DNA of 64,000 bases from Raillietiella orientalis (lineage: Eukaryota): NCBI GenBank assembly GCA_036172245.1, contig JAYWIR010000036.1:372001-436000 (forward strand). The letters run 5' to 3'. Below, piece by piece: positions 22,698 through 60,200 of this stretch. Numbering within the stretch: the first letter of the stretch is position 1; the number at the start of each line of letters is the position of its first letter. The notes beneath the pieces are model-generated. The model saw nothing but the letters and a program-made list of their open reading frames with translations, ran no database searches and was not told where the DNA came from. A program made the translations under genes and the position numbers.

Positions 22698-23560
22698 ACG
22701 ATTCTTACCTGGATATGCCGGGACATACATTTCGTAAAAAATAAACTGTCTTAATCTCTGTGGTTGGACCGCTGGTCCAACCACGTCCGTTCCAACGGGA
22801 GCCTGCTGGGTTACCGGTACGCAGACCTGTGATGTCCACCACAGCAGCAGAGGGGAAGGGACAAACAGAAAGAAAAGGAAAACAATAAATAGATAAATAA
22901 GCTTTGGAGGGGTGCGGGAAGAAATCACTGCTGGGGGCGTCTCTCTGCATCCTTTGAGGATGATAGCAACTCTTGCTGTATACAGTTCTTGAGATGGGGC
23001 CACTTAGGGTTGCAGCGTCCGTAAGCTAGCCCGTCGTCCACTCACCCATTCCTCCATTCGGAGATTTCAGCACTAACCTCCCGTCTGGCCGCAGGCTGCT
23101 GCCCATATGTTCCCTCAGGAAGGGCAGTGCAGCGACAAGGGAGGTTCTTCCTGCCCACGCACTCTTCAATGGGTGTTCCAGAATCTCAGAGAGCGAGCAG
23201 TTGCTATAGAAACAGTACATTAATCGCTGTGGCTGTTGTAGGCAACAAAAGCTGGAAGGCAAACAGCGAAGAGAGAAAAGAACGAGGCTGAGGGAGAACG
23301 GCGAGATATGCACACGGAAGAATGGACGACGACCACAGTCTGCCGTCTCTTTCGGAGCTTCTCCACCCCGAGCGGGGTTTGCCGGGAAAGGAGGCGGTCG
23401 GCATCGGATTCTCTCTGGCGCCGACCGCCGGAAGCGTGTCAAAGGCGGTGCCGCCGCCATCCACAGAGGCATCGCCGCGCAAGATGCTGTCGGTTTCGTT
23501 CACTCCTTTTGCCCTCTTTGAGGAAAGCAAGGGACGGCGACTTTCCGGGAGTGGTTGTCC
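22698..23560 (-). mobile_element. L1/Tx1-like 3' portion (ORF2 C-terminus and 3' UTR), Z-like, decayed
   Basis: YSNCSLSEILEHPLKSAWAGRTSLVAALPFL..GEWTTG; the 3' UTR at 22740-22950 aligns by eye with 57300-57510; decayed terminal motif at 22698-22733. Upper boundary approximate. Confidence 0.75.
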
Positions 23561-23599: not shown

Positions 23600-24705
23600 G
23601 GCGAATTCCTCCCTCTTCCCTCTCTTCCTCCCCAGCTTGCCAGAGGCGTGCCGAGTCGAATCGCCGTGCGCTGAGCGACCGCTCGAGAGACGGGAGAGGC
23701 CGGTGGTGGGCACAAGCGAGGAGGGAGGGAGATCAGCCCATTTCCAAGAGAAAGCAAAAGATGCCAGCTGTACTTCATCAAAAAGTGAACCCCCAGGAGT
23801 GTTTCCTTCCGTTGAAAATAAGGAAACTTGCTTACGCAGTTGGACCGCCAGAACTCTGGGGTTACCCCAAAGGAATTCTTCGTTGGGAGGAGTTGCTGGA
23901 CATCCCTCCCGGAGAGGCGTAAATACTCCCAGTGTTCGTGGACAGCTCTGCGCCTCCCCTGGGATAGAGGGACTCGGCGTTGCAGTTGCTGAACTGGGCG
24001 ATCCCATGCAACGCGCGCGTCCACCATCGGACGAGGGGGAGTGCGGCTCCTGATTGTGACCAGGTGCGGGAAACAGAGGAAACCAACCCGCATCTGCTGT
24101 CGGATTGTGCCGTTGCCCTCCCCGGTGTTTGGGAACGCTTGGCTGCGGCCCTCCCGCTGTCGACGGCAGAGAGGTCTTGAGGCGCCTATTCGCGCGCGAC
24201 TCAAAGCCTTCGGCCTGCGGCAGCTTCCCTCGCAGATCCGCCGCTGCACTCGCAGGATCGTGGCGGCAAGAAGCCGCGCCTAAAGAAGCAGGTCGAAAAG
24301 CGAGGTCATCGCAATCGTCTGCTCCTTAATGAGGAAGGCAACAGGATGGCCACACCTCTGCCAACAAAAGGAGGAAGTTACTAACATCCTCCAGAGGATG
24401 CTGAGGACGCCAGGAAGAAATCTATGATCTTTTCCCTGCTCCCCTCCTCCAACACATTTTCAAACTGAACTTTCCTTTGTGTGTGTGTGTTTTGTTTTCG
24501 CTTACCCTCCGTCCCCCATCCCTCCTGTGAGGTTCCCTCCGTCGGGCGAGCTGCTCACCATAAGCAGCGCCTCCGAGGCGGCATTTCCCTTCGTAGTGGT
24601 GATGTGAAGACGCTACGAAGAAAGACGTTTTTTATATGTTATGTGACTGTTTTTTTTCCTATAAATATTTTTTTTACAATGAACGCCCCGGCGTGACCGA
24701 GAGAA
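23600..24705 (+). mobile_element. L1/Tx1-like 3' portion (ORF2 zinc finger, 3' UTR, terminal motif)
   Basis: PKGILRWEELLDIP, LLNWAIPCNARVHH..PHLLSDC, MRKATGWPHL; ends aatgaacgccccggcgtgaccg at 24678. Confidence 0.8.
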
Positions 24706-25099: not shown

Positions 25100-25520
25100 A
25101 TCTGGTTGCCATGGCCTGGGAAAGAACCAGCCCGTCAAACGGACAGCACGTACTTGCAAAATTGCTGGAAGACAGCCGCGCAGAAGAATGCAAGTGCAGC
25201 GAGCGCTTCGAGGGTGAGGGAAGGACTGGAAGGGCTTGAAATCCCCTCAGCTGAAGACTCGCCATCTGCCTGTGTCGGCAATTCTTCCCGCTCCTGATAT
25301 TCCAGGAGCTTTCGAGGATGCACTCGAGCCGCAAGAGGAGATGAGCAGCTCCTGGGGAGGCCGGTGAAGTCACGGAAGCGTTCCAGAATAAACCACGTGC
25401 CACAGGAAGGGTGAGAAGACACGCGACGGTGTGTTGGTGGCCGACCGCTCCAGCATCGCTTCTGCCAGATTCGCGGTCCGCAGAACACGTGCACGAGGAA
25501 CGGACTTCCGCGCACCCAAA
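25100..25520 (-). pseudogene. Decayed LINE ORF2 C-terminal relic
   Basis: AHLLLRLECILESSW and EALAALAFFC resemble PHLLVDC..W and ALAALCC. Confidence 0.35.
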
Positions 25521-31490: not shown

Positions 31491-31649
31491 CATCGGAAGG
31501 AAGCAGACGCGTCGTCTCTCTTTCTGATCAGCTGTTTTTGCTGCTGCCGCTCAACCTACGCTGGAGAACCAGATTTCGCTGCCTCCCTTAAGAAATCCGT
31601 TCTCATTATTTGTAGCCTGCCCGCGGATCTACTGCCGCCCCACAAGTTG

Positions 31650-32500: not shown

Positions 32501-33109
32501 ACCGAGTCGAGGGACACAATGGAAATGTTCTTCCCCGCTCTGCAGCGATGCAGACCTTTATCGATCTGGACTCATCCTGCTCAGTGGTTGTGACGGGCTC
32601 CATTCTGAGAGAATGAAGGGCCTCCACCTACGGACCGGATTCTGTGACGGAGTGCTCACGACCACGCACTCTCCGACGAAGGAGCCCTACGCCCGCTTGG
32701 CATATTATCGAAAGCCCCGTGCATCTCACTGAATCTTTCATTTCGCCACTGCACCGCTGAGTTATCGCCATTCCCGTCTTTTGACTTTTTCGTGTTCCGA
32801 TGGCTTTAATATGACCCTTCTTGGGGGGTCATCTCTAGATGGAGGGAAACGGGTCTTTTTCCATCACAGTGGCCACGCATTCTCTCTACGCACCACAGGG
32901 AAACGGAGGAACCACCTATCTGAATTATATGCGAGGATGCTTTGTGTTTGAGAACCGTGAAACAGGCAGTCGCAAATTCAAGGTGGTAAAAAGTCGGTGT
33001 CCATTCACAAAGGAACCTGGAAAGTGTGCAGATATTTTCGAAAGAAATGAGTGGTGAATTCTTCATTTCAATGCACTGTTAGTTCGGAATGCAACGAGTG
33101 GTTTCCTTG

Positions 33110-39100: not shown

Positions 39101-39852
39101 TAGTCCTCTTCCTAGGCGAGCCTGCCCACATGGCCAGCATGCATTCTTTCTTGATTAACATTACCAACCGAATGCTGCAACTTTATGCTGAATCCCTGAA
39201 TGAGTGCACAGATACCATGGAGTTTTTCATGTCATTGCTAGCTTCCTTGGTTCGTAAGAATGCTGATCTGTTGACTCAAAGTATGATCAACACTTCATCT
39301 CTCTTTCAATGTGGTAAGCCGCAATCTTTTTGCTAAATCCAGAGCAAACTCTGAGCCCTGGGTTAGGTGTGCTTGCTTTGGGATTTCATGAGACCCGCAC
39401 CGTGAAAGCAGCTGTTTCATTCCTGATCAGCTTCATTGTCCGTAGTAGAGAAGTTGCTTCCTTAAGCACCATAGTCAATGAACAAGGAGAAGGGCTAGTG
39501 ATGCAGACCTTGCGTTGCGTAGGAGGGCATTCTCCAAAAGGAACATTGGAATACACAGCTGACATCTTGTTTTTCTTAAACAAGAAATATTGTGATAGTT
39601 TGTCACGCTGGTTACACACATGCTTAGTGCTAGAAGGATTCCCTTCGGAATATGCGACCTTCAAAATGAAGCAGCAGTTTATAAGTGAAGTGCTAAGGTG
39701 AGGCTGTAGTTGCTTTGAAACTGGCTGAAAGGCATTGTAGGATCAAAGCCAACAAAAACAAAATGGTGAATCTGGTCAAAGAATTTTCCTTGTGTTGCCA
39801 GAATCTCTCCCCAGGAACAGAATATGCAAACCAAGTCGCTTCTACCTTATGA
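36189..39852 (+). CDS. IPO13: Importin-13 (karyopherin-beta family), 14 exons, about 959 aa
   Basis: Exons 36189-36209, 36272-36442, 36549-36716, 36760-36909, 37081-37153, 37195-37493, 37543-37752, 37795-37977, 38019-38268, 38314-38495, 38542-38703, 38746-39313, 39367-39697, 39741-39852; all GT-AG and in phase, 2880 nt. Importin-13 motifs include VQFFGAMTIH, KIILTRLCV, LRLIPEEFQ, FWFTLKDD, WSEEEKEQLRRYREDIGDTL, ADILFFLNKKY and VKEFSLCC. The first micro-exon is less certain; an alternative start is the ATG at 36302. Confidence 0.93.
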
Positions 39853-39949
39853 TATGGAATGGTTCATTCCTTGCATAGTACAAAGTAACTTATTGGAAGA
39901 GAGATTGGTTTTACATATTACGACGCATCTTCAGAGTATCTCGGCGCTT

Positions 39950-40700
39950 TAGTAACAGTTCCTTTTCGAAGTATACGATCATTGCGAATATACAGTCAAT
40001 AAACATTGATTGGTATGTGACTGTCTTTTCATTCCTGCTGGAATCCACCTGCTCCGTGCCCCAAGGCGTTCTGATGCTCGTGATTTCTGGTTTCCGCCCT
40101 TTTTGTTTCCGTTTCCATTTTAATAATTCTAGTCCATGTTGCATACTCACTGTCTTCACTTGCCTACGTAAATGTAAAGCGTCAGCATGTAATGCCAGTA
40201 AGATAAAAATACAAAAAGCTGCGCAAAATTCATAAACGTGTTGATCTCCTTTCATCATTTTCGCAAGACGTCTAGTGAGGCTGTGTGGTCTCTGCAAATT
40301 TACAACGTGGAATCCCAGTAGTTTCAAAGTTTTCCACATCGTCCTTGGATAGAGTGTTTAGCCGACCAGATACCCAGCCCCGACAGGTTTCTTGGTACGG
40401 TGGAAGCTCTTCGACGGTCTCAATCACAAACCGATACTTCCTCATTGCGCAGTTGGCAATCAGCTGGCTGCTCGCGGGGATCACAGCTGCTCGTTTTATT
40501 TCGACGAAACCGACAGCTTTCTTTGAGATGCCCATTTCTTTGAGATGCACCAACCAAGCCGGCAAGGTTTCGAATCGGTACAGCGGAGATTCCAGAAAAG
40601 TGCCACGAAGCACAAATTTAAGAGGGAAGCTTTTGAGTCCTAAACGACATCGGAATCATTTAGAAAACAACTTAAAGCTAGCAAGTGGAGATGGCAAATG
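39950..40700 (-). pseudogene. Very decayed non-LTR RT relic (R4-like), just downstream of IPO13
   Basis: AWLVHLKEMGI..VGFVE, LNTLSKDDV and ALHLRR occur in RT-domain order; weak. Confidence 0.3.
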
Positions 40701-42599
40701 AAATTGTCAGCTGACGAGAGGATTGGTGCCTCATTGCTCCCTTAAGAAGGTACACTGCACACTGGCTTTCGCACATTCTTCCAACACCTACATCTCATTC
40801 AGGAAGGGCTCCAAGTGGGGAGTGGCGGGAAATAAAACTCCGTAATTACCAGACTTCCAGGGATTGTCGCACACGAACCATAACCTGGGAAAGCCAAGCT
40901 ATCTTCGGTTCCTTAGATTCTGGAAAATAGTTGGTTCCTCAGATGCTGCCTACGAGAAGTACATGAAGTTCAAGGTAGGTACAAAAGGCTTTACAAGTTG
41001 CTATTTCTCGCTTGCCTAAGCGAGAAGCACATGAAGCCAGGAACAGCAAGTGCATGAACGATGCTGGAAATTCAAAGGTCCAACGCTTGCTCTGAAGAAT
41101 TCAATCCAGCTAGGAATGCCTGGAGTGAGCGAGAAAGGGGATCATCTGCCAATTCTTCAGTGTGGGGAACGAAATGTAGTGGCGATGTCCCCCTCCCCCC
41201 AAAAAAAAGAAAAAAAAAAAAAAATTTAGCAAAGATGCTTTCCACAGCAACAGAACTTTGGTCATGAGAGGAACATTTACGAATCCACGCAATCCTATAA
41301 GGAATGCTCATGCAGATGCGCTTTCTATCGAATGTCGTAATGTAGAGATAGGTGAACAAGGCAAGACGCTAGTGATTTATTAAATACAGGAGAAGAAGAG
41401 CCCTCTATGGCCCGCAACAACGAGACCTAATGCTGGCACGTATTCAAAGAAATTGTAGGCCCCAATTGCAAACCTAAAGATGTGACGCCTTCACCACTGA
41501 CTAGATCAAGTAGGGGACACGGGAGATAGGAGATACAGGTTTGCTCCATCGGTTGGGGTGGTCGCTGCGATTCGAAATTGCTATGAGAGAAGGAAGAAAC
41601 GCCATCGTAATTGATGCAAGCTACCCACAAAAGCACAGAATCAGGAAGGAACCATGAGAACCATTTGCTCACCTTTCGTTCTCAGACCGTTACACGCTCC
41701 CTGAGGGTTTGTGCAATTCTTCGAGGCAAGGGGCACCCCGTGAGGGAGCTAACCTAGAAATCCAGAAAGGGCTCCGTAGAAGACAGTAGGTTTTTCTCAC
41801 GCCTGAGGAGTAATCTCCACCCTGGTTGTCTCCGAAAGAAATCTCGAAGAGTACCTCCTTCCTTATTCTTTCCGAAGGGACCCCCGAAAGGGTTTTCTAT
41901 TTTCCCTCCTCCGAAGGGAACACGCAAGGGAGTCGCTACTGTATGCTTCTCTGAAGAGAACTCCGAACGAGTCCTTCCAAGTTTCCTCAGAAGGGCGCTT
42001 CCCTAAGGGAGCGGCAATCCTCTTTGCACTCTGCAGAGGTATCATCAATCCACCAGCTCCATGTTACGAGACGGAGGATCAACCCACGAGGGAACAGGGA
42101 CGGCTCCTTCGCACAACCATAGGGGATCTTTGAAGGGAATTGGACTCCTTGATTCTGCTTACTGGTAGGACTCCGAAGAGTCGACTCCCAATCCCGGACA
42201 CTCATCAGGGTCATCCGGTTTGAACCGCTACGAAAGAAAAATCCCAAACAGATACCATGGAAACGAGATTTGGGAATTGAGACTGCACACAGATTTCAGA
42301 GACGTCCGTGATCAAAGACTGTTAAGCGAGCGACTTCGATGTTCCGTCTTCTCGCAGCGTCGGTGAAGTTGGTGGATGTCCGGTGCTGGGACGTGTAGTC
42401 CGAGTAAGAGGCAGAAGATATGAAAGCTGCATTCGGTGAAGAGATTGTGAATTTTTTGAGGGTTGGGGGCGTGGGAGGGGGGACGCTGAGAAGGAACGCT
42501 AGATGATGCCGCTGCCCGCCGTGGGAAGGCGAGTAGAGGTTGCAAGTGGGATCATCGGCTTCCTAGACGCAGGGATTGTGGTGTTGGGTATGGGGTGTT

Positions 42600-44489: not shown

Positions 44490-45608
44490 ATGGAGGAAAC
44501 CCCAGAAACCCTTGGTCTCGTGCGCTCGCTCCACAACCTGCCAGTGGAAGATGTACTGCAAGACGAGGACGCGTGCCCTTCTGGCCGTCACACCTCTTTT
44601 TGCAGCGCTCTCTGCCCTAAGGGAAAGTGGCGACAACTATCTACTGACAAGGTGGAAGTTGTGCTGCACCGTTTCAGGAAAAACTCGCCTTTCCGCGCGT
44701 ACAGGACGGAAAGGCGAGTGAGCCGGCGGACTCCGCCCCTCCACTTCATATTGCGAAGGAACTGCTTCGATGGAGCGAGCTCCTCAGAGTGGCCTCCGAC
44801 GGACTTGTTGTCCCTCGATTGTGCATAAAGATTTCCGTGTTCCTGCTGAATTCGAGACGGAACATCCTGTTGTTTTCGCATTGAAGCATGCAGTGCAATC
44901 AGCGAAAAGAAAACGGATTTCCGGGGGCGTCGTGTTGCCGAACTGTTCGAGTTGCGGAGGGACTCAGTCGTTCCAACACCACTTCTTGGAATGCAGAGAC
45001 CTAAAGGAACTTTGGCAGAAGCTGAATTCAGCACTCCTACACCGCTAAGGAACTGAGATAGGCTTACTGCAGCCATTCTTCAGAAGTAGTGAAGCCACGA
45101 GAGGCGCTGTGATAGTGACGATGAGTTACGTCCGTGCCCCTCGCCATTTGCTGGAGAGTCGGGCGCAGCGAATGCAGACCTCCAGCATCTCAGCTGTCTT
45201 CATGAGGATGCCTGCATGGTGACCCTACCTAGACGAAGAAGAGAGGAAGGACATCGTTGATATCCAGTTCCGTTTCCGAGATGAAGGAGCAAACATTGCC
45301 AGTGACCCCTGCTTATGTTATTGTTTACGGTCCACTCCCGCCCGTTCCTGACTATTCCGGTGATTTAAAAAGAAAACGAAAAAGCCAAGGATACTCTTTC
45401 CGTCCTCCAATTTCATGTTGTTTTTGTTTTCGAACCTATATCTCTGCTCTGGACTTTTAGTAAACCGGCCGGACGTGCCGGGAACCTCTCCCCTTGAGCT
45501 TCCATTGGACATCTTTCCGGGAAGCCACCTCCTTCACAGTGTTCCTCTCGTGTTTGTTTTTTTTATTTGCATGGCAAATAAATGCCGCGGCCTCACTAGG
45601 TGCAAATC
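44490..45608 (+). mobile_element. L1/Tx1-like subfamily X 3' portion, decayed
   Basis: RISGGVVLPNCSSCGGTQSFQHHFLECRDLKELWQKLNSALLH matches RVSGGVVSPNCKRCGG at about 51950; UTR hairpin at 45465-45481; terminal aataaatgccgcggcctcactaggtgcaaatc at 45577. Confidence 0.75.
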
Positions 45609-46189: not shown

Positions 46190-48420
46190 TAGCGAAAGGA
46201 CGTAGCGCGTGAGGCAAGGACCATAAGTACTTCGGGAGGCACACTCAAAAGCTCGTTCCACCGGAGGAGTCCCTTCGGGGTGATGCGAGGCGTGGCGGCG
46301 TCTGCCAGCTCGCAAGTCCTCCAGCCGTCTATGGGTCGTGTTGCTCCTGCGATGGTGCAGGCGGCCTCCCACCTCGCCGGCAGGCAGCTGTCATCACTTG
46401 CCCTGAGGGCTGACAGCGCGTCGGCGAGGGGCATGACGGCCAGGCGAGTCCACTTCTCCTGGCTGTTGCAGACCTCATCCACCGTGCAGTACGGGGAGAG
46501 GTTGGTGCAACGGAGTTCCAACAGTGAAACATCCTGTTGCTTGGCCCAGCCTTGGTTCCTGCCGCCAGGCTTCAAAGTTCATTGGGCGGCAGGAAATCCA
46601 GGCGTGGGCTGCCAGGAGCCGGTAGAGAAGTTTCAAAGGGAAACCAAAGCATCTCGTGGCGCGCTCCGTATGCGGCAGTAACGAAAGAAGTCTGTCGCTG
46701 CCGGTGCAGCGCCGCAGGAGCAGGCGCGCGGGAGCACATCACGGAGTGGACCAAAGTTTGGCGCACAGGGCCAACATTCGAAGCTGCACCTGCAGCTCGA
46801 TTCTCTCCAGCGTCAGGATGCCCAAGCCGGCCTCCCGATGTGGAGCCGCTAAATCTTTGAGGCGGATCCTGGACCTCGTAGGTCCCCACAGAGCGTTCCT
46901 CAACAGGCTTTGCGCCTGGAGCTTGGTCGAATAGGGAGGAGGACAAACAAAAAGCAGGGGGCGTAAGAGGGGGGCAACGAAGGTGTTCCACGCTGTGGCC
47001 AGCTCCGGCAGGAGGAACCTGCCAAGGTGGAACGGGCACAGAGCACTCCCAGCCCGCCGAAGGCAGTCCGACCATGCTTCCACTGGGCTCATGTCCCCCA
47101 GCGGGACGCCCAAGTATTGGAAGGACGAAGCGGTCGGGATCCCCAGGCGGATCCAGTCGGACTGCCCCTCCCACGCTGCACCAACAGGAACGACCACGCT
47201 CTTACTCCGGTTTACGCTCATGCCCGCTCCCTGGCGAATCAGTTCGAAAAAATCCTCGAGACTGGACGCCGGGGTGGTCATGGGTAAAAGGAGAAGCAGG
47301 TCGTCAGCATAGGCCGCCACGGACGGCGTTCCTGGACAAGAGCTCGGCAGGTTGGCCAGCGTCAGCCTGTGCGCCCTCAGCACCAACTCAAAGAAGATGC
47401 TGAAGAGCAACCGACTTAAGCTGTCGCCCTGCCTGATGCCCCGCCGGACCGGCGTGCCGTACACGTGGCAGCCGTTGAAAGAGATGGAGATCAACGCGTG
47501 GCGTCAGCAAGCGCGCAAATAGGCCACGAAGTGCACCGGGAGATCGAGGCGTTTCAGGAGCTCCAGGAGGAGATCCTGATTCACGCAATCGAACGCCTTG
47601 CGGAAATCGACCGCGACCGCCAAGGCACCCGGCGCTTTCTTAGGCCGAATGCACCTTCGCCTAGCCGAGGCAGCCGCAGCTGCTGATCGCTTGCTGTTGT
47701 GCGCCACGCACCTCTGCAGCTCTTGCCACGTGCGCACGAAGAAAAGGTTCGCCTCCACGGACCGCCCGAGAACAGCGTAGGACTGCTCCGGACTTACCAT
47801 GGATCCTGCGATCCTGCCTAGGCGCTCGACCCAGAGCTTGGAGAACAACTTGACGTCCGAATTCACCAAGGTGATCGGAGCCAGTTGCTCAATTGGCGCA
47901 TGTCTCCGCCTTTCGGCAAGAGACGCACCTTGCTGAGCGAAACGAGGCCGGGACATTGCCCGTCTCTCGCATCAGCGTAGAAAGCCTCAGCACCAGGGGA
48001 ATGAGTTCCGCCGCGAAGCACTGGAAGAACTCCGCAGGCAGACCATCCTCACCTGGCGCCTCGCGCTTCTTGAGGCCCGCTATGGCGGAAGACACTTCCG
48101 CCGTGAAGGGCAAGTCAAGAGTGGCGCGTTCCTCCTCGTCGACCGCCGGGGCACCCGCCGGCAGAAGCAGCTTCGAGAGACTGCGTTCCGTCGGCTCCCT
48201 AGCATACAACGAGGTGTAGTAGAGCTTTAGGAGGCGGCGAACATCGGCCGCGCCCGAGCACTCCAGGCCCTGGTCGTCGAGCAGACAAGCCGCTCCTGAC
48301 TGCCAGACCTGGTGCTCGGCGTTGGCCTTGTACTCCGCAAGGTTCCGGACGTCCGGGCACCGGGAAGAGCGGCGGGCCTGCAGAAACTCTCTGCCGTTGG
48401 CCACACCTTCTCCAAAACCT
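46190..48420 (-). mobile_element. L1/Tx1-like subfamily X ORF2 (linker, RT, part of the C-terminus), frameshifted
   Basis: APGEDGLPAEFF, PITLVNSDVKLFSK, VDFRKAFD, GIRQGDSLS, AYADDL, FQYLGVPLG across ORFs 47889-48404, 47504-47956, 46739-47494 and 46189-46575. Confidence 0.92.
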
Positions 48421-49339
48421 GCCCTTCCTCCAAAGGGCGCTTCACGAAAGCCGGAAGCCGAGGTGGCGAGTCTGCTGCTGTATCGCAGGCAGAGAGAAGA
48501 TGATGAGCGGCTGGACCATGGGAGAGCTGACAGATGCTACGACCCCAAGTGTCCACCCGCGTGGATTAAGAAGATGGGGTGAGCTGCTCGGCATTCGATT
48601 GGATGACCCGAAGTGGCCCCCGGTTCTACTTGGATCCAGGATTCTTCCCCTGAAGTGGCAAGAATCGGCGCTTCTGTGGCTGCATTCGGGTCTACTTTGC
48701 AACGCGCGCCGCTTCCACTGGACGCGGGAAGAGTAAATCCTGTGTGTGCAAGGTGTGGGGAGCGGGAGTCGCTCCCTCACCTCCTAGTTGACTGCCGTGC
48801 CGTCCGGATTCTTTGGGATCGTCTTGGAACGGCCCTCGGTATACCGGAAGGTGGCAACCCCAGGAATGTTTACAGTCTTCTCTTTGTGCGGGACGCCCTC
48901 AGTCCAGCCACAACCCTCGCAGCACTTTGCTGCATCCGTGGTATCGTGGCAGCCTGGAGTAATGCCGAAGATGAAGATTCCACCGTAATGGACGTCATCC
49001 CATATGCTGTTCGCTTCCTGCGGAGAGCTATTGGATGGCCCCAGCTGGGAAGATTGAAGGAGGACCTCGAGGGTATCCTACTAAGGATGGACCCTCCTCC
49101 CAGTGGACTGTGATCCCTTCCCTTCCCTCCAAAAACTGTTTTCTTCTTTTTTTACTGATTTATTTTTCTTTTTGTTTTTCCCCCCATCCCCTTCCACTGC
49201 CGAGGAGAGTCACACCGGGCTGCGTCCCGGTGTCCCGGCAGGTCCGGCATTAAGTGGCCGTTAGTGGGGCCTTGTACCACGTACTGTAATGACGAATGAA
49301 ACGTTTTTTTAATAAACGTCCCGGAGTACCCGGGTGGCA
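48421..49339 (+). mobile_element. 5'-truncated L1/Tx1-like subfamily Y copy (ORF2 C-terminus and 3' UTR)
   Basis: CARCGERESLPHLLVDC zinc finger; collinear with but diverged from 54400-55314; terminal motif at 49311-49339. Confidence 0.92.
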
Positions 49340-51364
49340 TCTCCGAAACCTGGTGTGGGTGGACGTGTTTTTTGGTCGCTCCGCCAGCGAGTCTGGAAAG
49401 CAATCGAATTTTTTTTTAGTTTAGTGTGGTATTCAGGTTGGATCGTCGGTGTCCGATGGCAGCCTTGCCAGAGGACACCGCGATGGAGGTAGGCATGGGG
49501 GAGGCATGTCCTCACCCACAACCTGCAGAATCAGGGGCAAATGCCCCGGGATCCTCTTCGCAGCCCGCGAGGAGCTGGAGCGCCGTGGTGGCCGCGCCAA
49601 GCGTAGAAGCCATGGCAGAGATGGCCGCATATAAGGCTTCCGGATACAAGCCATCACTTGTATATAAGGTAGGCCCTTTATTCGACGGCCGGACGGCCCG
49701 CGCGTTTGCAAAAGCGCTAAAGGCCGCAGATGTGAAAGAAGATCTTGAAGGCCTCTCCGTCCTCAGCGGGGGTCAGCGCTTCGAGGTAGTCTGTAAAGAC
49801 TTCACCTTGGCCCAGCGCTTACTTAATAACCCGCTAAACGTAGATGGCCGCAAGATCTTACCGGTAACAATGGATCGCTCCGTGGTGGTCCATCTTATCG
49901 GCATCACTAACCGCATGACGCGCTCTGCGGTTAGTGAAGAGCTGAATAAGTATGGAGACGTGCACGCGCTGTGGGAGAAGCCCACGATATTCGAGGGCTA
50001 CAACAGCCTCTTCGGGGGTCAAGCCGCGGCGCGTGTTACAGTAAAAGAGGATTGTGGGCTCCCCCACAAACTAGAGGTGGCCAACGAGGCCGTCGACCTC
50101 TGGTACGTGGGGAAGCCACGGTATTGTGGCTACTGCGATGCAGTGGGTCACCTCCGAAAGAGGTGCCCGAACATCGAGTGCTACATATGCGGGAGAAGGG
50201 CCACGTTCGACGCGTATGTCCGAAACGGCCCACTCCGATACCGCCTGCAGCCAAAAAGGCGCAGGCAAAAAGGCGAGGTCGTTAAGGTTAAGGTCGAAAG
50301 ACCTCAACGAGAAAGTGGCCGGCAACAGCCGCCAGTCCCCCTTCCTCCAACACAGGTGTCTGAAGAAACAGTTTCCGAAGACGCGGGAAACGAGGAGGGC
50401 TGGAAGTTGGTAAAGGCCAAAAAGCCAAAACCTGCTGAGAAAGCGCAGAAAACCACGGAGAAAGTCGCCACCGGCGTGGTTCCAAAATGAAGCCGCGTCC
50501 CGAAACCCCCCGTGAGTGCTCGGTAGCACTGGAGCGCGTCGCCGTTCCCGAGGCTGCCACCCGGAGCGAAGATCCTCCCCTCGGCGTTTGCGCTGCACCT
50601 GAGGTTCGCGAAGGCGAACCGTCTGTTTGCCCAGATGGTGAGCCGCGCGACGCGACCGTCGAAAACGAGGACACAGCTTTCGAGAAGGCGGCGGAGGAGC
50701 TCGCGGCCACGCTGGCCGAGCGCGAGAAACCGTCACGCAAGGCCATGCGAAGGCCGGCTCCAACGAGGAAGGCCCCCGCAGGTGAGTCCGACATGGGGGT
50801 AGGAAGTTCATCTTCCTCCGCGGAGGCACCACCTCGGACAGCGGAACGAAATTCCCAAAAGCATAGGAGGGGCGCCTCCCGTCAACGAGCGAGTAGGAGA
50901 ATCCGGAAGCCCACGCTCGGAAGCCGGTAAGCAGGCGACCCTCATAGAGGAGGGTGAGCAAGGGAGCGAAGATCCCCCTGCATACGCCGAACCCGAGCAG
51001 CCCGCCCCAATGGAGGAGGGCGATCAGGTAGGCGCGACACCTCCCTCGTCGGAGTCGCCGGACACACCGGCACCCATGGAGGAAGGGGACCAGGTGCTCT
51101 AAGCACCCACCCCTTCTCCTCCTAGCGTCCAGGCCCAATAGGTGGCAGACGCCGCAACGACGATTTCCCAGGATTAACACCTGGGCTCGCCTGTCGGCGT
51201 AGGATCCGCGTAGCCTGCTGGAACGTCAACGGGCTGCGCGACGACGGCAACAGGCGGGATACGGCCGACACCCTGCGCGACTTCGACCTGACGCTCCTGC
51301 AGGAGATCCACGGGATCACCGCGGCAGACGTCCAGGAGATCGAAACGATCGCAAGGGGTCGTTT
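49340..51364 (+). mobile_element. 5' part of an L1/Tx1-like element: 5' UTR, ORF1 (49456 to about 51102, frameshifted) and the APE N-terminus
   Basis: ORF1 knuckles CGYCDAVGHLRKRC and CYICG/EKGHVRRVC (frameshift near 50193), twice-repeated PAPMEEGDQV; then RIRVACWNVNGL..LTLLQEIH (APE motifs) at about 51200-51310. Confidence 0.9.
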
Positions 51365-52466
51365 GCTTTTCACCCTGGTGCGCCGGGGCGTTTATTTCAA
51401 AACTATCCTGGAACAGAGTTCCCGGACAAAGGACACAGAAGAAACGAAGGGGGTGGGATCCCCGACACGCAGGTCGGTATACGGAAAGTCCGGAACGCGA
51501 GGGAGGAGACCACAAATACACTTATAAAAAAAATAAAAATAAAGATATGGAGGGTAGGGGACAGGGGTCTTTGGTAAGGCCGTTCCTTCCTTTCAGAACC
51601 GGCGATGGATGCCGGCGATCTCTCTCCTAACGCCCTCTGGTAGATGGGCCCACTCTTAAGCCGACGACATGTTCGCGCTGGCTATTCCGGTGGGTTGACG
51701 AAGGATGGCCAGCTTCTCCAACTCTCGGTGGGCCTTGTCGATGGCGCTGTTGCAACAGACCGTTGCGATTAGAGCACCTAAAGACAGGCCGCCTGGCGTG
51801 AAGAAGCGGCGCATCAAGTCTCTCGCGGTATCCCCCTGGTGCAGGAGAGCTGAGGCCAGCCTCCGCCACAGTCCTAGGAGGACACCGCAGTCCAGGAGCA
51901 GGCGCGGGAGCGTTTCCACTTCCCCCGCACCGCTTACAGTTCGGGGAGACAACTCCCCCGGAAACACGGTTCGTCCGCTGGTTGGAGTGAAAACCCCAAT
52001 GCACCAGCATGATGACGTCCTGTTTCCAGTTCAGAGGGAACACAGAAGTGTTCAGACACGAGAGAGGGACCACAAGTTCTTCGGGGGGATCACTCAAGTG
52101 TTCACTCCACCGAAGGATTCCCTTCGTAATGTAGCGAGGCGTGGCGACGTCCGCCAGCTCGCAAGTCTTCCATCCGCCTATGGGTCGTGTTGTTCCTGCG
52201 ATGGTGCAGGCGACCTCCCACCTCGCCGGCAGGCAGCTGTCATCTCTTGCCCTGAGGGCTGACAGCGCGTCGGCGAGGGGCGTGACGGCCAGGCGAGTCC
52301 AATTCTCCTGGCTGTTGCAGACCTCATCCACCGTGCAGTACGGGGAGAGGTTGGCGCAGCGGAGTTCCAAAAGCGAAACATCCTGCTGCTTTGCCCACGC
52401 ATGCAACGGTTCCTGCCGCCAGGCTTCAAAGTTCGTTGGGCGGCAGGAGATCCATTACTGGGCTGG
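51365..52466 (-). mobile_element. 5'-truncated subfamily X copy (ORF2 C-terminus and 3' UTR), nested antisense
   Basis: ORF 51627-52406; 52100-52466 is closely similar to 46240-46612; terminal motif at 51365-51396. Confidence 0.92.
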
Positions 52467-52484
52467 CAGCCCAGTAATGGATCT
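52448..52484. repeat. Perfect 18-bp inverted repeat with a 1-nt spacer at a strand-switch junction
   Basis: agatccattactgggctg-g-cagcccagtaatggatct. Confidence 0.95.
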
Positions 52485-55314
52485 TCAATGCCGCCAAGCC
52501 TGGCAATCCGGGTCGGCCAGCTTGCCGGACGACCAGGGCCGGGAATGTTCGTCCCCGGCGTCGGTACGGCATCTCGTGCGGAGATATTATTCCTCCCTTT
52601 ACGCCAGGGCTCCCCCGGACCAAGCTGTCTCTCAGCGCTTGCTTCCGGACGGTGCCTAGGCAATAGGGGAGGAGGATTCGTTGAGCCTCGACGAGCCATT
52701 TACCACCGGCGAAATTCTCGCCGGTATCAAATGGCTCAAGAGGCGTGAGGCGCCAGGGGAGGACGGCTTGCCCGCGGAGTTGTTCCAGTGCTTTGCGGAA
52801 GAGCTGGCCCCCCTGGTGCTCGAGTTGATACGGCTGATCCGAGAAGAAGGCAATGTTCCCGCCTCGTTTCGGTCAGCCAGACTGAGGCTCCTTCCGAAAG
52901 GAGGAGACCTCAGGAAGCTAAACAACTGGCGTCCGATCACCATCGTGAACACGGACGCCAAGTTGGTTGCCGGGCTGTGGGCTTCGCGTGTGGGGCAGGT
53001 GGCAGAATCCATAATTAGCCCGGAGCAGACTTATGCTGTTCCCGGGCGAAGTATGGATGCCAACCTTTTCTTCGCGAGCACATGGTTGCATGTGCAGAGG
53101 TGTGAAAGTGAAGGACATGGGAGAATCGCCAACCCCACTTTTGGGCCGCCAGTCGTGCAGGGAAGGAACTCCCGGGCGGGGAAAGGGGCCCTAGCGATCG
53201 CATTCGATCTGCATAAAGCGTTCGACTGCGTGGACCAGGATCTCCTCTTGGAGATCCTGGGGCGCATGGGCTTTTCACCGTCCCTGATAACCTACCTGCG
53301 CTCCTGCTGGCGCAGCGCGATAATTACCATTGATTTCAGCAGTCAGAAGGTGTATGGCGTGCCGGTGCGGCGGGGCATAAGGCAGGGCGATAGTCTCAGT
53401 CCCCTGCTCTTTACCACCTACTTTGAGTTGGTGCTGAGAGCATATAGGGTGACTTTGGCCCCCTTGCCGAGCTCGTGCCCCGGTACGCCCGCCGTAGCCG
53501 CTTATGCCGACGATCTTCTGCTCCTGTTACCTATGTCAACCCCGGAGAAGGCGGTCGGGGATTTCTTCGATCTGCTTAGCCGCGGGACCGGACTACAGGT
53601 GAAGAGGGCGAAGTCATCGGTGGTGCCAGTTGGTGCGGCGTGGGCAGGGCAGCAGGACTGGGTCCGTTTGGGGATCACCACGGCGAGGTGCTTCAATTAC
53701 CTTGGTGTGCCGTTGGGGGACTATTCCCCTGCCGAAGCGTGGTCCAGCTGCCTCCAAAAGGTTGATACGGAGATCGGCCCGTTCCTGGAAAGCAAGTTTC
53801 ACTTGTCGGAACGGGCCGCGGTTTGGAACGCCTTTGCGGCCCCCATCCTCCGCCCCTTGCTTTTTGTCTGCCCCGTCACCGTAGAAGCGAAAAAGCGTAC
53901 AAAGGACCTCCTCCGCATCGCCCTTTGGGGCAAGGGGAGGCCCCGAGTCCCTTTGAGGGATTTATGCGCTCCGCGTCGGGACGGTGGTCTTAACCTCCTG
54001 ACGCTGGAGCGCTTGGAGATTCAGCTGCGATGGCGCACCCTCGCCATCGCAGCGAAGATGTGGAGCACCCCTTGGTGCATTCCGGCCCGCCTACTCGCCA
54101 GGCGTGTGTCCCGGTGCGAAGGACTCGCGTCTTTTCTTCTGTGCCCCGGCCGGAAGATCCGAAGATGCGGTCTACTGCTAGGGCGCCCTGGCGAAGGAGA
54201 ACAGCTGGATGGTTTGCAGCCCCGCCAACTCCTCCGCCTGGCTGGAGGAGAATATCGGCACCTGGGCTGTCGTAAACCAGCGGAGCCACGAATCGTGGAA
54301 TCGTCTCCGATGCAGCCCCTACTCCCGCTGCACGCTGCGGAATCTCCTGGAGAGCCCCGCTAGAAGCTCGTGGGCAGAGACGACCTGCCTAGCTACGGCG
54401 CTGCCCTTCCTGAGGAGGGCTCTTCACAGCAGCCGGACGCCAAGGTGGCAAGTCTCCTGCTGCATCGCGGGACGTGAGAAGATGATGAGCGGCTGGACTA
54501 CAGGAGAACTGGCAGACGCCACAACCCCGATCGTCCAGCCGCGAGGAATACAGAGATGGGGCGAGCTGCTCGCCATCCCCATGGATGTGCTGAAGTGGCC
54601 CCCGGTGATGTTAGAATCCAGGATCCTGCCCCTTAAGTGGCAAGAGTCGGCGTTGCTACTATTGCACTGGGGTTTACCCTGCAATGCACGCCGCTTCCAC
54701 TGAACAAGGGGAGCTGTGGATCCTGCATGTGCCAGGTGTGAGGAGCGGGAATCGCTCCCCCACCTTATTGTGGATTGTGCTGCCCTCCGACCCCTTTGGG
54801 AACGGTTTAGGTCGACCCTGGGTCTCCCGACGGGCAGCGCCCCCAGAGACGTTTTCCGCCTCCTCTTCGTGCGGGACGCCCTGCAGCCAGCTGCAGCCCT
54901 CGCAGCACTTTGCTGCGTCCGAGGCATAGTGGCGGCCTGGAGCGACGCCAACAACGAAGACCGGGACATCAACGAGAGGGACGTCATCCCATATGCTGTT
55001 CGCTTCATGCGGACAGCTGCCGGATGGCCCCAACTGGGGAATATACGGATGGACCTCGAGGGCTTCCTTCGACGGATGGGCCCTCCTCACAGCGAATAGT
55101 GATCCCTTCACTGCCCCCCAACTTCTTTTTGTCTTCTTTTTTATTCTTTATTTTTCTTTTTGTTTTCTCCCCATCCCCCTTCACTGCTGAGGAATGCTAC
55201 GCCGGGCTGCGTCCCGGCGTCCCGTCATGTCCCGCGCATATAGCCGTGAGTGGGGCCTTGTACCACGAAATGTAGAGTTTTATCTAATAAACGCCCCAGG
55301 CGCACCCGGTGGCA
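52485..55314 (+). mobile_element. L1/Tx1-like subfamily Y ORF2 (RT and zinc finger) and 3' UTR; best-preserved RT in the window
   Basis: ORF 52681-54363 carries KLNNWRPITIVNTDAKL, FDLHKAFD, GIRQGDSLSPLLF, AYADDL and FNYLGVPLG; stops at 52657 and 54701 and a frameshift near 54180; CARCEERESLPHLIVDC; stop at 55099. Confidence 0.95.
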
Positions 55315-57272
55315 ACACCAAATCCCCGGGGCAGGCAGTGCAGAGGGAACTCCTCGCAAAACTCGCGGACCGAGACCTTCATGCGGTCCCAGTCTTCGAG
55401 ATTGCGGAGGATGACGTCTCCCAGTACTTGGCGGAGATGTTCCGCCGCACCTGAAATGCGCGTCCAGTCCCCCGGCATACGCCACGCCCTGGATGGTGGT
55501 CCTTTGTCGCGTGGCATAACCTCGAATATCAACCGGAAAGGGTCCGATAGCGTCGACGGAAGTTTCCCTCGTCTGCCGACCCGGGCACAGGTCGGCGTCA
55601 AGGAAGACGTGGTCTACGCTTTGGACCATTTCCGGTAGGTCCCCCAACAAGTTGCGCGTGAGCATAGCAGCGCACAGCTCGTTGGCTGCGTCTTTTTGCC
55701 CGCAAGGCACACCTGAGAGCAGGCGGATGTTGAAATCCCCACCGATCAGATGCACTTTGCGTACGTTTGTATCCGCCAGCCAGTCGCGCTTCAGGGTTTC
55801 GAGGAACCGGGAACGTTCCCCGTACCCGCATCCTCCGCTCGGAGCGTACACATTCGTCACGACAAGGTCGATCGAGTCGGACTCCCTAAGGATGAGCTGG
55901 CCAACCCGACTGTCCTTGTCGAAGCGTACGTCCTTGACGAAGGCGGCGACTGCTGGCTTCATAAAAAACGCGACGCCACAGGTGTTGCGATGCATGCGCG
56001 CGACGACGGACGCCACCGCCGGGTCTGTATCCTCCGGTAATAATTTGCCAGAGGGCTGAGAGTCGGCAGCGACGAGTGCAATTTTGCCGCTCCGTTCGAC
56101 CGCAGGAATGCGCTTGATGACGACAGAGCAGCGTTTCATTTTTTCGCGACGCGGCAAATTCTCGCTGCGTTTCGCGATATTACTTGTTTTGTTTTATTCC
56201 TTGAGGTTTTTCTGCCTCTTGGATTGCACTGTCTGCCATCCAGGTTCCTGGCCGTTCTCCTCGACCTTGTCCGCGTTTTCCGACGGGATCTCGGAGCTGA
56301 CCTTCACCTGGGGCACGATAGCTTTTTGCTTAGCGGCGGCTCGCGCTGCTAAAAGTCGTAACTTTTTTGCAGCGCGCTTCTTCGCATTCCGTGCGGACGC
56401 TGCGCGGACTTCATTTTGCGGGCACACCGGAAGAGTGTGCCCGGGTTGCTTGCATTGCTTGCACTGCAAGTGGGGGCACCTATTTTTCAGGTGACCTGAA
56501 GTGCTGCAATGCCCGCAGAAATGCGACTTCCCAACATACCAAATGTCAATGGACTCGCCGTCGACCTCCAGCTTGTTAGGTAAGGAGCAACCCTCGCGGA
56601 CCGTGACTCGGGCGGCAGCCAGACCGCATGGGAGTCGGCCGTATTCCCGAAACAGAGTCGGCTTTTTCCATGACGCGTGGACGGTGCCAAATTTTAGCAA
56701 TTCCTTTCGGACAGCCTCTTTGGCCATCCGAAATGTGATTCCGAGGAGGTGGATCACGATGGACCTATCCTCCGTGATGGGGAGGAGCCGGCGATTCCCC
56801 AAAGGAACAGGTGTTCGGAGCAGACGCTGGGCAAGACTTGCTTCTTTGCAAATCACCTCCACGTACTGTCCACCGCTCCTGATGGTCATCGCCAAGAGCT
56901 CCTCCTCCGGAACTTGCAAAGAGTGCATCGCTTTCGAGAAAGCGCGCGCACTCTCAAAGGAATAAAGGTTACCTTATAGAGTAGCGGGGGATTGCACTCC
57001 TCCTCCAGGTAGGCTTTTAATTCAGCCGCAGCCGCCGGCGATGGCGCCGCAGCCACGGAACTCCAGCTCCTCCCTAACAAGGGAGACGCTTCTGTGGGGG
57101 TGGTTGCCCCTACATCCATTGATTCTGGGGGAGACAGAGACGTCGCCCCCTCCGTATCACTGGTGGTGGTCTCAGGCATTGCTGCCTAGCCACCACCGAA
57201 TCCACTGGCACACCAGAGGAAGGAAAACCCGCAACCGTTCAGGAGCGAAATAAACACCCGTCGGCTCTCGCT
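55315..57272 (-). mobile_element. 5' part of an L1/Tx1-like element: 5' UTR, ORF1 (57179-56194, frameshifted) and APE lacking its N-terminus
   Basis: Knuckles CGHCSTSGHLKNRC and CKQCKQPGHTLPVC; APE motifs GVAFF, NVYAP, IGGDFN, VDHVF; homologous to the + strand ORF1 (RSWS.V.AAPS, RS.V.HL.GIT, WYVGK). Confidence 0.9.
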
Positions 57273-60200
57273 CGCTTCTCACCCGGTTGCGCCGGGGCGT
57301 TTATTCTTGCGAATAAAACGAGATTCTGTGGCTCAACTGGAGGTTTAGCCACGCACAAATAAAGAACAAGAAGCCTGCCGGGTCACCGGGTCACAGTCCG
57401 GTACGGTCCACCACGACAGCAGAGGGGGCTGGGACAAAACAAAAAGATATAAATAAAAAAATAAAAAAAATATATAAAAGCAAGATCTGGTGGGCACGGG
57501 AAGGGATCACAGTCTGCTGCAGGGTCGTATCATCCTTTCTAGAATGCCGGCAAGCTGTTCTTGGATTTGCAAATCCAGATGGGTCCATCCTGTCGCCGTC
57601 CTCATAAATTCGGCTGAGCATTGGACGGCACCCTTATCGCGTGGTCCTCCCGTTGCCTTGCTCCAAGCAGCGACGATCCCGCGAAAGCAGCACATAGCTG
57701 CTAACGATGCCGCTGGCCGAAGGGCGTCGCAAACGAAGAAGGACCTAATAGAGTCTCTGGGGTTGCCACAGGGGATACCGATTGCCGCGGCGAAGCGGTT
57801 CCAAAGGAGCCGAAGAGCAATGCAATCCATAAGGAGGTGGGGGAGGAACTCCCTTTCCCCACACCTCACACAATTAGGGTTCACCGCTCCCCAGGTCCAA
57901 TGGTGCCGGCGGGCGTTGCAAGGGAGTCCCCAATGCAGCAACAGTAACGCCGACTCCTGCCACTTTAAGGGGAGAGTGGAGGTGTTCATCAGCACCGGGA
58001 GCCACTTCAGATGTTCAATAGGAACATCGAGCAGCGCGCCCCAGCGCAGAAGCCCATTGGGAGGCGTACTCGGGGTCGCAGCGTCTGTTAACTGGCCCGT
58101 CTTCCACTCTCCCTGCTTCTTCTCCTTACCAGAGATGGTTGCTTTAACCTCCCACTTCGCCGCAACATCGCTGTCCTGATCTTCCACTAGGGAGGCCAGC
58201 GCAGCAGCGAGGGGGGTTCTTCCTGACCACGCTCGCTTCTTCGGATCCTCCAGGATCTCTCGGAGCGTGCAACTTCTGTAGCACCCAAACAGGAACCATG
58301 GTTCCTGTTGGGTGCGTTGCATGCCGCACTGTGCCCACGTGCGAACGGTTTCCTGCAACCAGGCACTACCGTTCGCGGGGCGACAGGTGATCCATTCGTG
58401 GTTTTTCCGAACCAAGGCAGCCACCCTCCGCAGATGGAGCCCACATCGGTGGAGTGATAGAAAGGACGTGAGTCCCATCTTCCCGGTGGCTTCCTTGACG
58501 AGGAGACGTGCAGGGACTCACCAGGAGGTGCACCACAACTCCGGCACAACGGCCATCATTCGAAACTGGAGCTGAAGCTCCAGCCGCTCCAATGTCAGGA
58601 GACCGAGACCGCCGTCCCGACGCGGGGCGCACAAGTCCTTCAAGCGGACTCGGGCCCTTCCGTTGCCCCAAAGGGCGATACGAAGGAGGTCCTTCGTCCG
58701 CTTTTTGATCCTCTCTGTGGGGGAACAAACAAAAAGCAGGGAACGGAGGAGAGGAGCCGCAAACGCGTCCCACGCCGCGGCCCGTTCATGCAGGAAGAAC
58801 CTGCCGTCCTGGAACGGGCCGATCGCCGCCTGAGCCTTCTGAAGGCAGCCGGACCACGCTGCCGCAGGGGAGTAGTCCCCCAACGGCACACCAAGGTACT
58901 GGAAGTACGTCACCGTGGGGATCCCCAAACGGACCCAGTCCTGCTGCCCTGCCCACGCCGCACCAACTGGCATCACGGACGACTTCGCCCTGTTCACCGT
59001 AAGTCCGGTTCCCCGATTCAGCAGGTCGAAGAGCTCCTCGACTGCCGAAGCTGGGGTGGACATAGGGAGCAGCAGCAGAAGGTCGTCCGCGTACGCTGAA
59101 ACCGCCGGCGTACCGGCGCAGTCGTGCGGCAGGTGCGCCAGAGTTTCCCTGTACGCTCTCAGTACCAACTCAAAGTAGGTACTGAAGAGCAAAGGACTCA
59201 GGCTGTCTCCCTGCCGTATCCCACACCGCACCGGCACGCCGTGCACGGTCTGCCCGCTGAAAGTAAGACTAATTAACGCTTTGCGCCAACTGGAGCGCAG
59301 ATAGGCCAATAATGAGGCCGGGAAGCCCAAGCGTTCCAGAAGCTCCAGCAGGAGATTCTGGTCGACGCTGTCGAATGCTTTACGCAAGTCGACAAGCGTC
59401 CGCAAGGGCTCCCTCCCCCATCCGACCATCCGATCCATGGCTGACGGACTCACCGGAATTCCGGTTGCTCAATAAGCCCCTTCCTTGTTGGAGCTCTAAC
59501 CAGGTGGAAGCGTGGAACAGGTTCGCCTCCATGCTTCGCCCGGGAACAGCATATGTCTGTTCCGGGCTGATGAAGGCGTTGGCAACCCGTCCCAGACGCT
59601 CTGCCCACAGCTTGGCTAACAACTTGGCGTCCGCATTCACTGTTGTGATGGGACGCCAGTTGTTCATGCTCCTAAGGTCTCCTCCCTTCGGGAGGAGCCG
59701 CACCTTTGCCGAACGAAACGAGGCGGGAACGTCGCCTGTCTCGCGTATCAGCAAGGTGAGCTGATGTACCAGGGGGGTAAGCTCTGCCGCGAAAGTTTGA
59801 TAAAACTCCGCAGGCAGGCCGTCCTCCCCTGGAGCCTTGCGCCTCTTGAGCTTTCCGATGGCCGAGAGGATCTCGTCCATCGAGAAAGGCTCGTCGAGGG
59901 ACTTTCTCTCCTCCTCCCCGATCGCTGGAGAGCCTTCCGGAAGCAGGAGTCCTGAGACATCCTGCTCCGGAGGCGCTGTTGCGTACAGGGAGGAGTAAAA
60001 TTTCCAAACAATCCCGCGCTTCTGAGCGGGAACCGAGTGCTCCCGGCCCTGGTCGTCCAGCAAGCTGGCCGACCCGGATTGCCAGGCTTGCCTCTCGGCT
60101 CCCGTTCGATACTCCGCTAACCTGCGCATGTCGGGGGTTCTCGCGTAACGTCGGGCCTGAAGATAGCACCTTTCATTACGCGGACCCTCCCCAAATCCCG

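Follow-up and report, generated by a model that had tools for sequence, protein, structure and literature searches.

Introduction

Retrotransposons of the R2 and R1/SART1 types do not depend on a long A-tail; their reverse transcription has a defined 3' start and involves more than one helix of the 3' untranslated region (UTR). In the L2 clade of long interspersed nuclear elements (LINEs), the stem-loop of the tail sits beside terminal short repeats. For the L2-clade elements UnaL2 and ZfL2-1/ZfL2-2 this stem-loop is bound by the ORF2 region between the endonuclease and the reverse transcriptase (RT), and both the stem shape and the loop sequence are needed (PMC4176376). For the L1 clade, the monocot lineage "monocot 1a" was described by Ohshima (2012) as carrying at the 3' end a conserved hairpin whose loop is kept and whose stem changes are compensatory (PMC3472496; PMC3747384), and an ancestral stringent recognition was argued for the clade (PMC3472496). 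A stem-loop with a specific position, a loop of 5-7 nt and a bulged stem of 8-10 bp has also been proposed for the 3' UTRs of human L1 and Alu (Grechishnikova and Poptsova 2016, PMC5135761). We describe a comparable hairpin, with a CUGCGU loop, from a retrotransposon family of Raillietiella orientalis, where it lies in the 3' UTRs of copies that have diverged. The copies lie in a stretch of 64,000 nucleotides (the window; assembly GCA_036172245.1, contig JAYWIR010000036.1, positions 372,001 to 436,000, forward strand), to which all positions below refer.

The hairpin was noted earlier in a sequence-only reading of the window, which listed six copies and proposed a selected cis-acting RNA element, possibly undescribed, for template recognition by ORF2p. 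The analysis reported here confirms the existence, position and pairing pattern of the hairpin and gives the proposed role in template recognition about an even chance.

The retrotransposon family

The window is eukaryotic DNA with a G+C content of 38-62%, and no tRNA genes were found in its 64 kb. The region 44-61 kb, together with parts of 22-33 kb, consists of nested, diverged copies of a single family of retrotransposons lacking long terminal repeats (non-LTR). The family frames match the Pfam domains RVT_1 (best E 1.1e-20), zf-RVT and, weakly, Exo_endo_phos, and the solved structure closest to the RT is that of human L1 ORF2p (E 3e-35), with R2 far behind (2.4e-14). Named relatives in a large protein collection are at most 30% identical and are labelled L1 or Tx1, while an unnamed JGI protein, P0073, is 68% identical to the family RT. 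Judged by domains and best matches rather than by a tree, the family belongs to the L1 superfamily (L1/Tx1), a placement that goes no finer. Of the features of that superfamily, an apurinic/apyrimidinic (APE)-type endonuclease (by a weak match), the RT, a C-terminal CCHC domain (zf-RVT) and L1 ORF2p as nearest relative are all present; the 3' poly(A) tail that is usual in L1-clade elements is missing.

The six copies carrying the hairpin form three sister pairs, which we designate subfamilies Y (c49 and c55), Z (c57 and c22) and X (c51 and c45), and a fourth subfamily consists of c24 and the decayed copy c30. For seven copy pairs, the synonymous divergence (dS) of the adjoining ORF2 lies between 0.70 and 2.03 and the ratio of nonsynonymous to synonymous divergence (dN/dS) between 0.20 and 0.32, so most of the divergence arose in separately active lineages under selection at the protein level. 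The six copies are products of separately evolving active lineages and not recent duplicates.

A hairpin in the 3' untranslated region

All six hairpins listed in the sequence-only reading were found at the positions it had given (Table 1). Its assignment of them to the 3' UTRs of diverged L1/Tx1-like copies agrees with the Pfam domains, with L1 ORF2p as the closest structure and with their position past ORF2. In 6/6 copies hairpin 1, as we call it, lies on the sense strand about 105-155 nt downstream of the region coding for the ORF2 C-terminus and past a pyrimidine-rich spacer, and the distance from its loop to the terminus is nearly constant, 96-126 nt upstream of the element 3' end. A C-rich or T-rich tract with repeated CCC runs begins each 3' UTR at 49114-49196 and in the equivalent spacers of c55, c57 and c22. 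Its complement in first-strand cDNA would be G-rich and may permit formation of a G-quadruplex.

The consensus structure obtained with RNAalifold for the four Y and Z copies consists of a 6-bp outer stem with a bulged base, a 3-bp middle stem, a one-sided internal loop of 6 nt and a 7-bp inner stem. Hairpin 1 of these two subfamilies thus extends past the inner stem, which is capped by the 6-nt loop, and the extended form includes a 1-nt bulge in addition to the internal loop. The middle stem reads GGA/UCC in Y and GGU/ACC in Z. The outer stems of the earlier reading, CTGCCG/CGGCAG, CTGTCG/CGGCAG and CTGCTG/CAGCAG, are present, as is the second hairpin with GTGG..CCAC that it had described. 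In subfamily X only a 5-bp stem and the loop occur.

Table 1. Positions of the tail features of the retrotransposon copies in the window.
Feature	Position	Strand	Details
Stop codon of the ORF2 remnant of c49	49111..49113	+	open frame 48607..49113; its product can be aligned to the CCHC domains at the C-terminus of other copies
Pyrimidine-rich (C/T) spacer of c49, from stop codon to hairpin 1	49114..49196	+	same layout in c55, c57 and c22
Hairpin 1 of c49	49197..49241	+	outer stem 49197-49202/49236-49241; middle stem 49204-49206/49233-49235; inner stem 49213-49219/49226-49232; loop CUGCGU 49220-49225; inner hairpin ACACCGGG-CTGCGT-CCCGGTGT, 49212-49233; fold -25.3 kcal/mol, z -3.09
Hairpin 2 of c49	49260..49280	+	GUGG 49264-49267 with CCAC 49277-49280
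AATAAA of c49, start of the conserved terminal box	49311..49316	+	pattern AATAAAYGYCCNRG: 6 matches in the window, 0.41 expected
Terminal palindrome of c49	49320..49337	+	CCCGG-AGUAC-CCGGG followed by UGG; probable element 3' terminus; no poly(A) after it
13-mer between c49 and the next element	49338..49350	+	CATCTCCGAAACC; related 13-mers at two further junctions
Junction 13-mer	48407-48419		CTTCTCCAAAACC
Junction 13-mer	55313-55325		CAACACCAAATCC
Hairpin 1 of c55	55184..55228	+	inner hairpin ACGCCGGG-CTGCGT-CCCGGCGT, 55199-55220; stem ACGCCGGG/CCCGGCGT; loop CUGCGU 55207-55212; two outer-stem mismatches
Hairpin 1 of c57	57375..57419	-	ACCGG-aCTGTGAc-CCGGT; loop CUGUGA 57396-57391; A.C at the closing position; two U.G wobbles
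Hairpin 2 of c57	57328..57352	-	GUGGCU..AGCCAC and three distal pairs; 9/11 positions paired
Hairpin 1 of c22	22803..22847	-	ACaGGT-CTGCGT-ACCgGT; closing pair U-A; one internal A.G mismatch
Hairpin 2 of c22	22760..22784	-	perfect 11-bp stem; fold -24.1 kcal/mol, z -3.93
Hairpin 1 of c51	51462..51477	-	CCGAC-CUGCGU-GUCGG, 5 bp
Hairpin 1 of c45	45465..45481	+	CCGGC-CGGACGU-GCCGG, 7-nt loop
Tail of c24 (fourth subfamily)	24536..24620	+	two strong hairpins, 24536-24581 (loop CACCAUA) and 24589-24620; fold -40 kcal/mol, z -2.35
Tail of c25 (decayed seventh tail)	25238..25411	+	weak match to the hairpin model; end AATAAA...GGGTG

Conservation and covariation

The bare CTGCGT hexamer is not enriched in the window (28 found, 30 expected), so that the case for the hairpin rests on context. 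When the whole UTRs were aligned, two islands stood out as conserved, with mean pairwise identities of 0.64-0.71 for hairpin 1 and 0.57-0.75 for the terminal box. In the surrounding and intervening segments the identity is mostly 0.0-0.4, with about 0.6 for the T-rich low-complexity spacer. Over the 15 copy pairs, the hairpin core (22-23 nt) is 57-91% identical, whereas identity at synonymous sites is only 30-54% in the four pairs for which both were measured (binomial P 9e-5 to 9e-3, for a region chosen post hoc).

The sequence-only reading held that the stem changes with compensation, and the alignments bear this out. In the six-copy alignment 77.4% of the 84 cells pair, compared with 68.2% after shuffling (0/500 shuffles attained the 77.4%) and 26-39% when the partners were slid; both sides have changed in 5/14 pairs. 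The four Y and Z copies, with both hairpins included, yield 84.6% pairing of 104 cells, against 79.3% for the shuffles (0/500) and 30-46% for slid partners, and both-sided changes in 5/27 pairs. On a tree of three pairs, these changes correspond to about six double-sided events. At the closing pair, G-C occurs in both Y copies, C-G in both X copies, U-A in c22 and the mismatch A.C in c57. The pair next to it has changed from G-C to A-U in c51, and elsewhere A-U has become G-C in c55, A-U and U-A are swapped in the middle stem between Y and Z, and the outer stem of c22 shows U-A in place of C-G, c55 and c57 having the intermediate U.G. A swap of C-G with U-A is also seen in hairpin 2 between c57 and c22.

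All possible 8-pair helices with loops of 3-40 nt were scanned in the six-copy UTR alignment. The helix of hairpin 1 ranks first of 3,879 for pairing and is the sole candidate that matches both its own pairing and its own level of covariation; the candidate helices formed by the columns of hairpin 2 take ranks 2-5. A covariance model built from the six window copies recovers only those six in the 64 kb (E 3e-14 to 1.8e-7), and the next cmsearch match, at 25241-25294 (17.8 bits, E 0.041), falls in the decayed tail c25.

The hairpin is conserved far above the synonymous sites of the adjoining ORF and its stem carries double-sided changes; these sequence comparisons are therefore best read as selection on a cis element, as the sequence-only reading had suggested. 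The swap between c49 and c55 (ACGC/GCGU versus ACAC/GUGU) might stem from decay of CpG, an explanation that was rejected as weak: in the LINE cluster the ratio of observed to expected CpG (CpG o/e) is about 0.9, which makes such decay a poor account of paired transitions.

The second hairpin and the fourth subfamily

Hairpin 2 follows hairpin 1 in the Y and Z copies and is only 4 bp long in subfamily Y (Table 1). The sequence-only reading had claimed that the loop is conserved across subfamilies. This holds for three of them and fails for the fourth, since c24 and c30 carry other hairpins and other loops at the same place.

The 3' terminus and the junctions

The terminal box, the most conserved block of the UTR, sits directly after AATAAA at the element 3' end, and the consensus common to all tails is AATAAACG(C/T)CCCGG-N4-5-CC(N)GGGTG. 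No A-run follows the box in the eight tails read. Its palindrome is kept as sequence: none of its 5 pairs has changed on both sides, and 80% of them pair as against 81.7% after shuffling. It also lies within a few tens of nucleotides of the RNA 3' end, and hairpin 1 does not. A pairing between the loops of hairpin 1 (UGCG) and the terminal palindrome (CGCA) was considered and discarded as not beyond chance; the 4-bp match is present in 4/8 tails, and equal or better matches occur in 6-43% of the windows of the same size in their own UTRs.

Copy c49 is truncated at its 5' end, extending from about 48420 to 49337, and lies head to tail with a longer element on the plus strand (49351-55312). The latter possesses a 5' leader of its own and, at 49420-50490, a frame resembling ORF1, shows stops in the frames of its endonuclease region (50491-51360) and is interrupted by c51. 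Both are nested in a minus-strand copy, the halves of which resume at 48422 and 55317. Any two of the three 13-mers found at these junctions (Table 1) have 9-11 of their 13 positions in common, and an uninterrupted homologous site, CCTCCCCAAATCC, is present in another copy at 60186-60198. Copy c49 and the longer element represent two insertions at one 13-bp site in another copy; it is a single site, and the other tails have other flanks. Either this site was hit twice in succession, the 13-mers then being target-site duplications, or they belong to the tail of the element itself, which matches its target. Under both readings poly(A) is absent and the RNA ends at, or 13 nt past, the palindrome CCCGG-N5-CCGGG-UGG.

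The 13-mer junctions also hint at a Tx1-like target specificity directed towards the family's own copies. In addition, a homologous 5' leader, GACGKGTKTT...CGCTCC, begins directly after the 3' ends of c49 (49351-49420, plus strand) and c57 (57262-56974, minus strand), where the pattern gives 2 matches with 0 expected, and a looser version follows c25 at 25412-25440 on the plus strand. The ORF1-like frames that follow the leaders after c49 and c57 are 52% identical to each other, and the copies are arranged head to tail.

Proposed function of the hairpin

What the tails show directly is where the hairpin lies, how it is conserved and paired, and that poly(A) is lacking. Since the element ends at a defined sequence and has no A-tail, its RT must recognise its own 3' tail. 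In the mechanism that we propose, the tail would have three parts, hairpin 1, hairpin 2 and, at its extreme 3' end, the conserved terminal box (AAUAAACGCCCCGG-N4-5-CCGGGUG), and by recognising it the RT would find its own RNA and start on it, a mode of target-primed reverse transcription known as stringent. Hairpin 1, in which a stem with a CCGG core carries the CUGCGU loop and is extended in two subfamilies by a 3-bp and a 6-bp helix, would most likely be one point of protein contact for ORF2p or the ribonucleoprotein (RNP), and the terminal box would mark the start site of reverse transcription. We consider it an evenly balanced proposition that hairpin 1 is a selected structural element of the sense-strand 3' UTR RNA with this predicted contact in stringent priming. 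The active form would then be RNA rather than DNA, the sense strand would be the one used and ORF2p would be the partner. That the fourth subfamily has two hairpins of other sequence at the equivalent place of its UTR counts in favour of the proposal.

A number of points weigh against it. The sample consists of six sequences in three sister pairs, with few independent events; the shuffle control takes no account of how they are related, and the structure was tested on the very sequences that had served to derive it. Four of the six hairpins fold no better than dinucleotide shuffles (z-scores of -3.09, -0.68, -1.24, 0.02, 0.22 and 0.11). The summed folding energies are equal for the sense strand (-91.2 kcal/mol) and the antisense strand (-90.4 kcal/mol), so that they allow no choice of strand, nor between RNA and single-stranded cDNA; the count of pairs leans slightly to sense, which has five G.U cells but two A.C/C.A cells. 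Mismatches occur in c57 (A.C at the closing position), c22 (an internal A.G) and c55 (two in the outer stem), and the CUGCGU loop is lacking in c24 and c30. Hairpin 1 is distant from the terminus, about 100-125 nt from the end, whereas the monocot 1a hairpin lies within the last 45 nt as described for that lineage (PMC3747384), and the terminal box is conserved at least as well. Moreover, the covariance-model search revealed no non-autonomous element with the same tail in the 64-kb window. Further copies were found neither in metagenome scans with the C-terminal and RT alignments nor in a scan of viral-contig proteins and a tail-pattern scan. Six tail-pattern matches in contigs of prokaryote genomes are attributed to chance, and none of them fits the hairpin model (best 11.3 bits, E 0.35).

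Alternatively, the hairpin would have no function and be a GC-rich CCGG palindrome inherited from the ancestor of the subfamilies, with the apparent compensation produced by a few events, by decay after insertion and by choosing the helix by eye. The near-zero z-scores of four copies and the mismatches in three fit such an account, the invariant CCGG/CCGG core is uninformative on structure in a set of six sequences and three pairs, and related sequences can exceed shuffle controls without having any structure. We nevertheless hold it to be improbable, because the copies are deeply diverged (dS 0.7-2.0) and their flanks barely alignable, yet the core remains 57-91% identical; because the helix came first in a scan that involved no prior choice; and because three Watson-Crick forms occur at the closing pair and A-U is swapped with U-A in the middle helix. 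The CpG o/e of about 0.9 also argues against it. Selection could, on the other hand, act on an RNA structure that serves a step other than template recognition, such as 3'-end processing, stability, export, localisation, packaging by ORF1p or control of translation, with the RT recognising the terminal box alone. Hairpin 1 lies 90-110 nt upstream of AATAAA, a usual place for upstream elements of polyadenylation or stability; it is farther from the 3' end than the hairpin of monocot L1, and the terminal box lies at the true 3' end and is the best conserved block. Against this stand the integrated copies without an A-tail, for which ordinary handling of the mRNA type cannot be the whole story, the terminal palindrome, which itself shows no covariation, and the larger 3' UTR folds that are recognised in elements of the R2 and SART1 types, and we consider a role in such another step unlikely.

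The selected form might also be DNA, either as a palindrome bound by a dimeric protein or as a hairpin of the cDNA or antisense strand acting in second-strand priming or as part of a promoter, either for antisense transcription or for a tandem copy downstream. Both strands fold equally, the A.C mismatches of c57 and c22 become G.U on the opposite strand, and 2-3 of the 8 tails are directly followed by the exact 5' leader of a further copy. No downstream copy is present at five tails, however, and the five G.U cells against two A.C/C.A cells favour the sense strand. Symmetric changes of the half-sites to three different pairs would be unusual for a protein-binding site, and conservation of the asymmetric internal loop is confined to one side. 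Selection at the level of DNA is therefore very unlikely in our estimation.

If hairpin 1 is indeed a recognition element in stringent priming, the family would provide an L1-superfamily example of sequence-specific template choice without poly(A). It would then bear on how L1-type enzymes choose their own RNA (cis-preference) and on stringent recognition as the ancestral L1 state (PMC3472496; PMC4176376), and the hairpin would be a compact handle for finding the non-autonomous passengers of the family and for annotating its copies. At present, the hairpin is nothing out of the ordinary for a LINE tail, where such a feature is to be expected, and it is supported by a small sample. A more far-reaching proposal, for which the chances appear slim, is that the three-part tail is the recognition module of an undescribed branch of L1/Tx1 elements that lack poly(A) and insert into a fixed 13-bp site of their own relatives. 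Because the loop is common to subfamilies that lie 0.7-2 synonymous substitutions per site apart, a single conserved surface of ORF2p would read it, and the subfamilies could mobilise one another. In such a branch the "ancestral stringent L1" state of Ohshima would be seen at work outside plants.

Other features of the window

Several further features were noted. An open frame of 480 amino acids on the plus strand (31290-32732) is distantly similar to the C-terminal domain of ORF2 and has no recognisable tail; a 7-bp hairpin, ATGACCC..GGGTCAT, occurs about 80 nt past its stop codon (32811-32832). On the minus strand an inverted repeat, CCATTACTGGGC-TGCCA-GCCCAGTAATGG, is found at 52452-52480, at the point of 5' truncation of c51, and may be an artefact of the insertion junction. 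The stretch 34000-42000 has a lower GC content (42%), a CpG o/e of 0.51, compared with about 0.9 elsewhere, and a TG/CA excess of about 1.25, and it includes a karyopherin-like exon of the TNPO3/IPO13 type (38746-39336); a search with a karyopherin-like fragment brought up no homologue. A tandem repeat with three copies of a 54-bp unit, 98% identical, is located at 3087-3247.

Comparison with known systems

At the gathering score, Rfam families gave 0 matches in the 64-kb window. The Rfam search that the sequence-only reading had called for, made with Rfam 15, thus matched no described family, and a permissive search on three tails yielded only noise (E at least 2.6); the R2 element model likewise gave no match. 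The motif therefore lacks an Rfam counterpart, and the literature check made here cannot show that the exact motif is unpublished. The earlier suggestion that it is possibly undescribed stands for this motif and falls for its kind: a 3' hairpin with covariation has been published for a lineage of the L1 clade (PMC3472496; PMC3747384) and a proposal for human L1 has been made (PMC5135761).

The closest likeness is to monocot 1a as it is described in those papers, with which the family has in common an L1-clade LINE as carrier, a conserved island in a variable 3' UTR, a compensated stem, a conserved loop and the reading of a stringent RT. The hosts and the loops differ, UCU in monocot 1a and CUGCGU here, and monocot 1a elements end in poly(A) and have SINEs (short interspersed nuclear elements) that carry the same hairpin, whereas the copies described here lack poly(A) and no SINE partner was seen in the window. 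The proposed stem-loop of human L1 is similar in its clade and in its bulged stem, the extended form of hairpin 1 having a 1-nt bulge. The human proposal, however, concerns positional conservation within one young family with poly(A), in contrast to covariation across subfamilies without it.

With the L2-clade tails hairpin 1 has in common a short stem and a loop of 5-7 nt in the tail of a LINE. Those stem-loops belong to another clade, and their loop differs between sister elements and sets specificity, whereas here the loop is common to three subfamilies. R2 and R1/SART1 resemble the tail module proposed here in having no need of a long A-tail, in a defined 3' start and in the use of more than one helix. 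They are likewise members of other clades, and in the present family target specificity is hinted at. Finally, hairpin 2 and the terminal box also set the family apart from the known cases.

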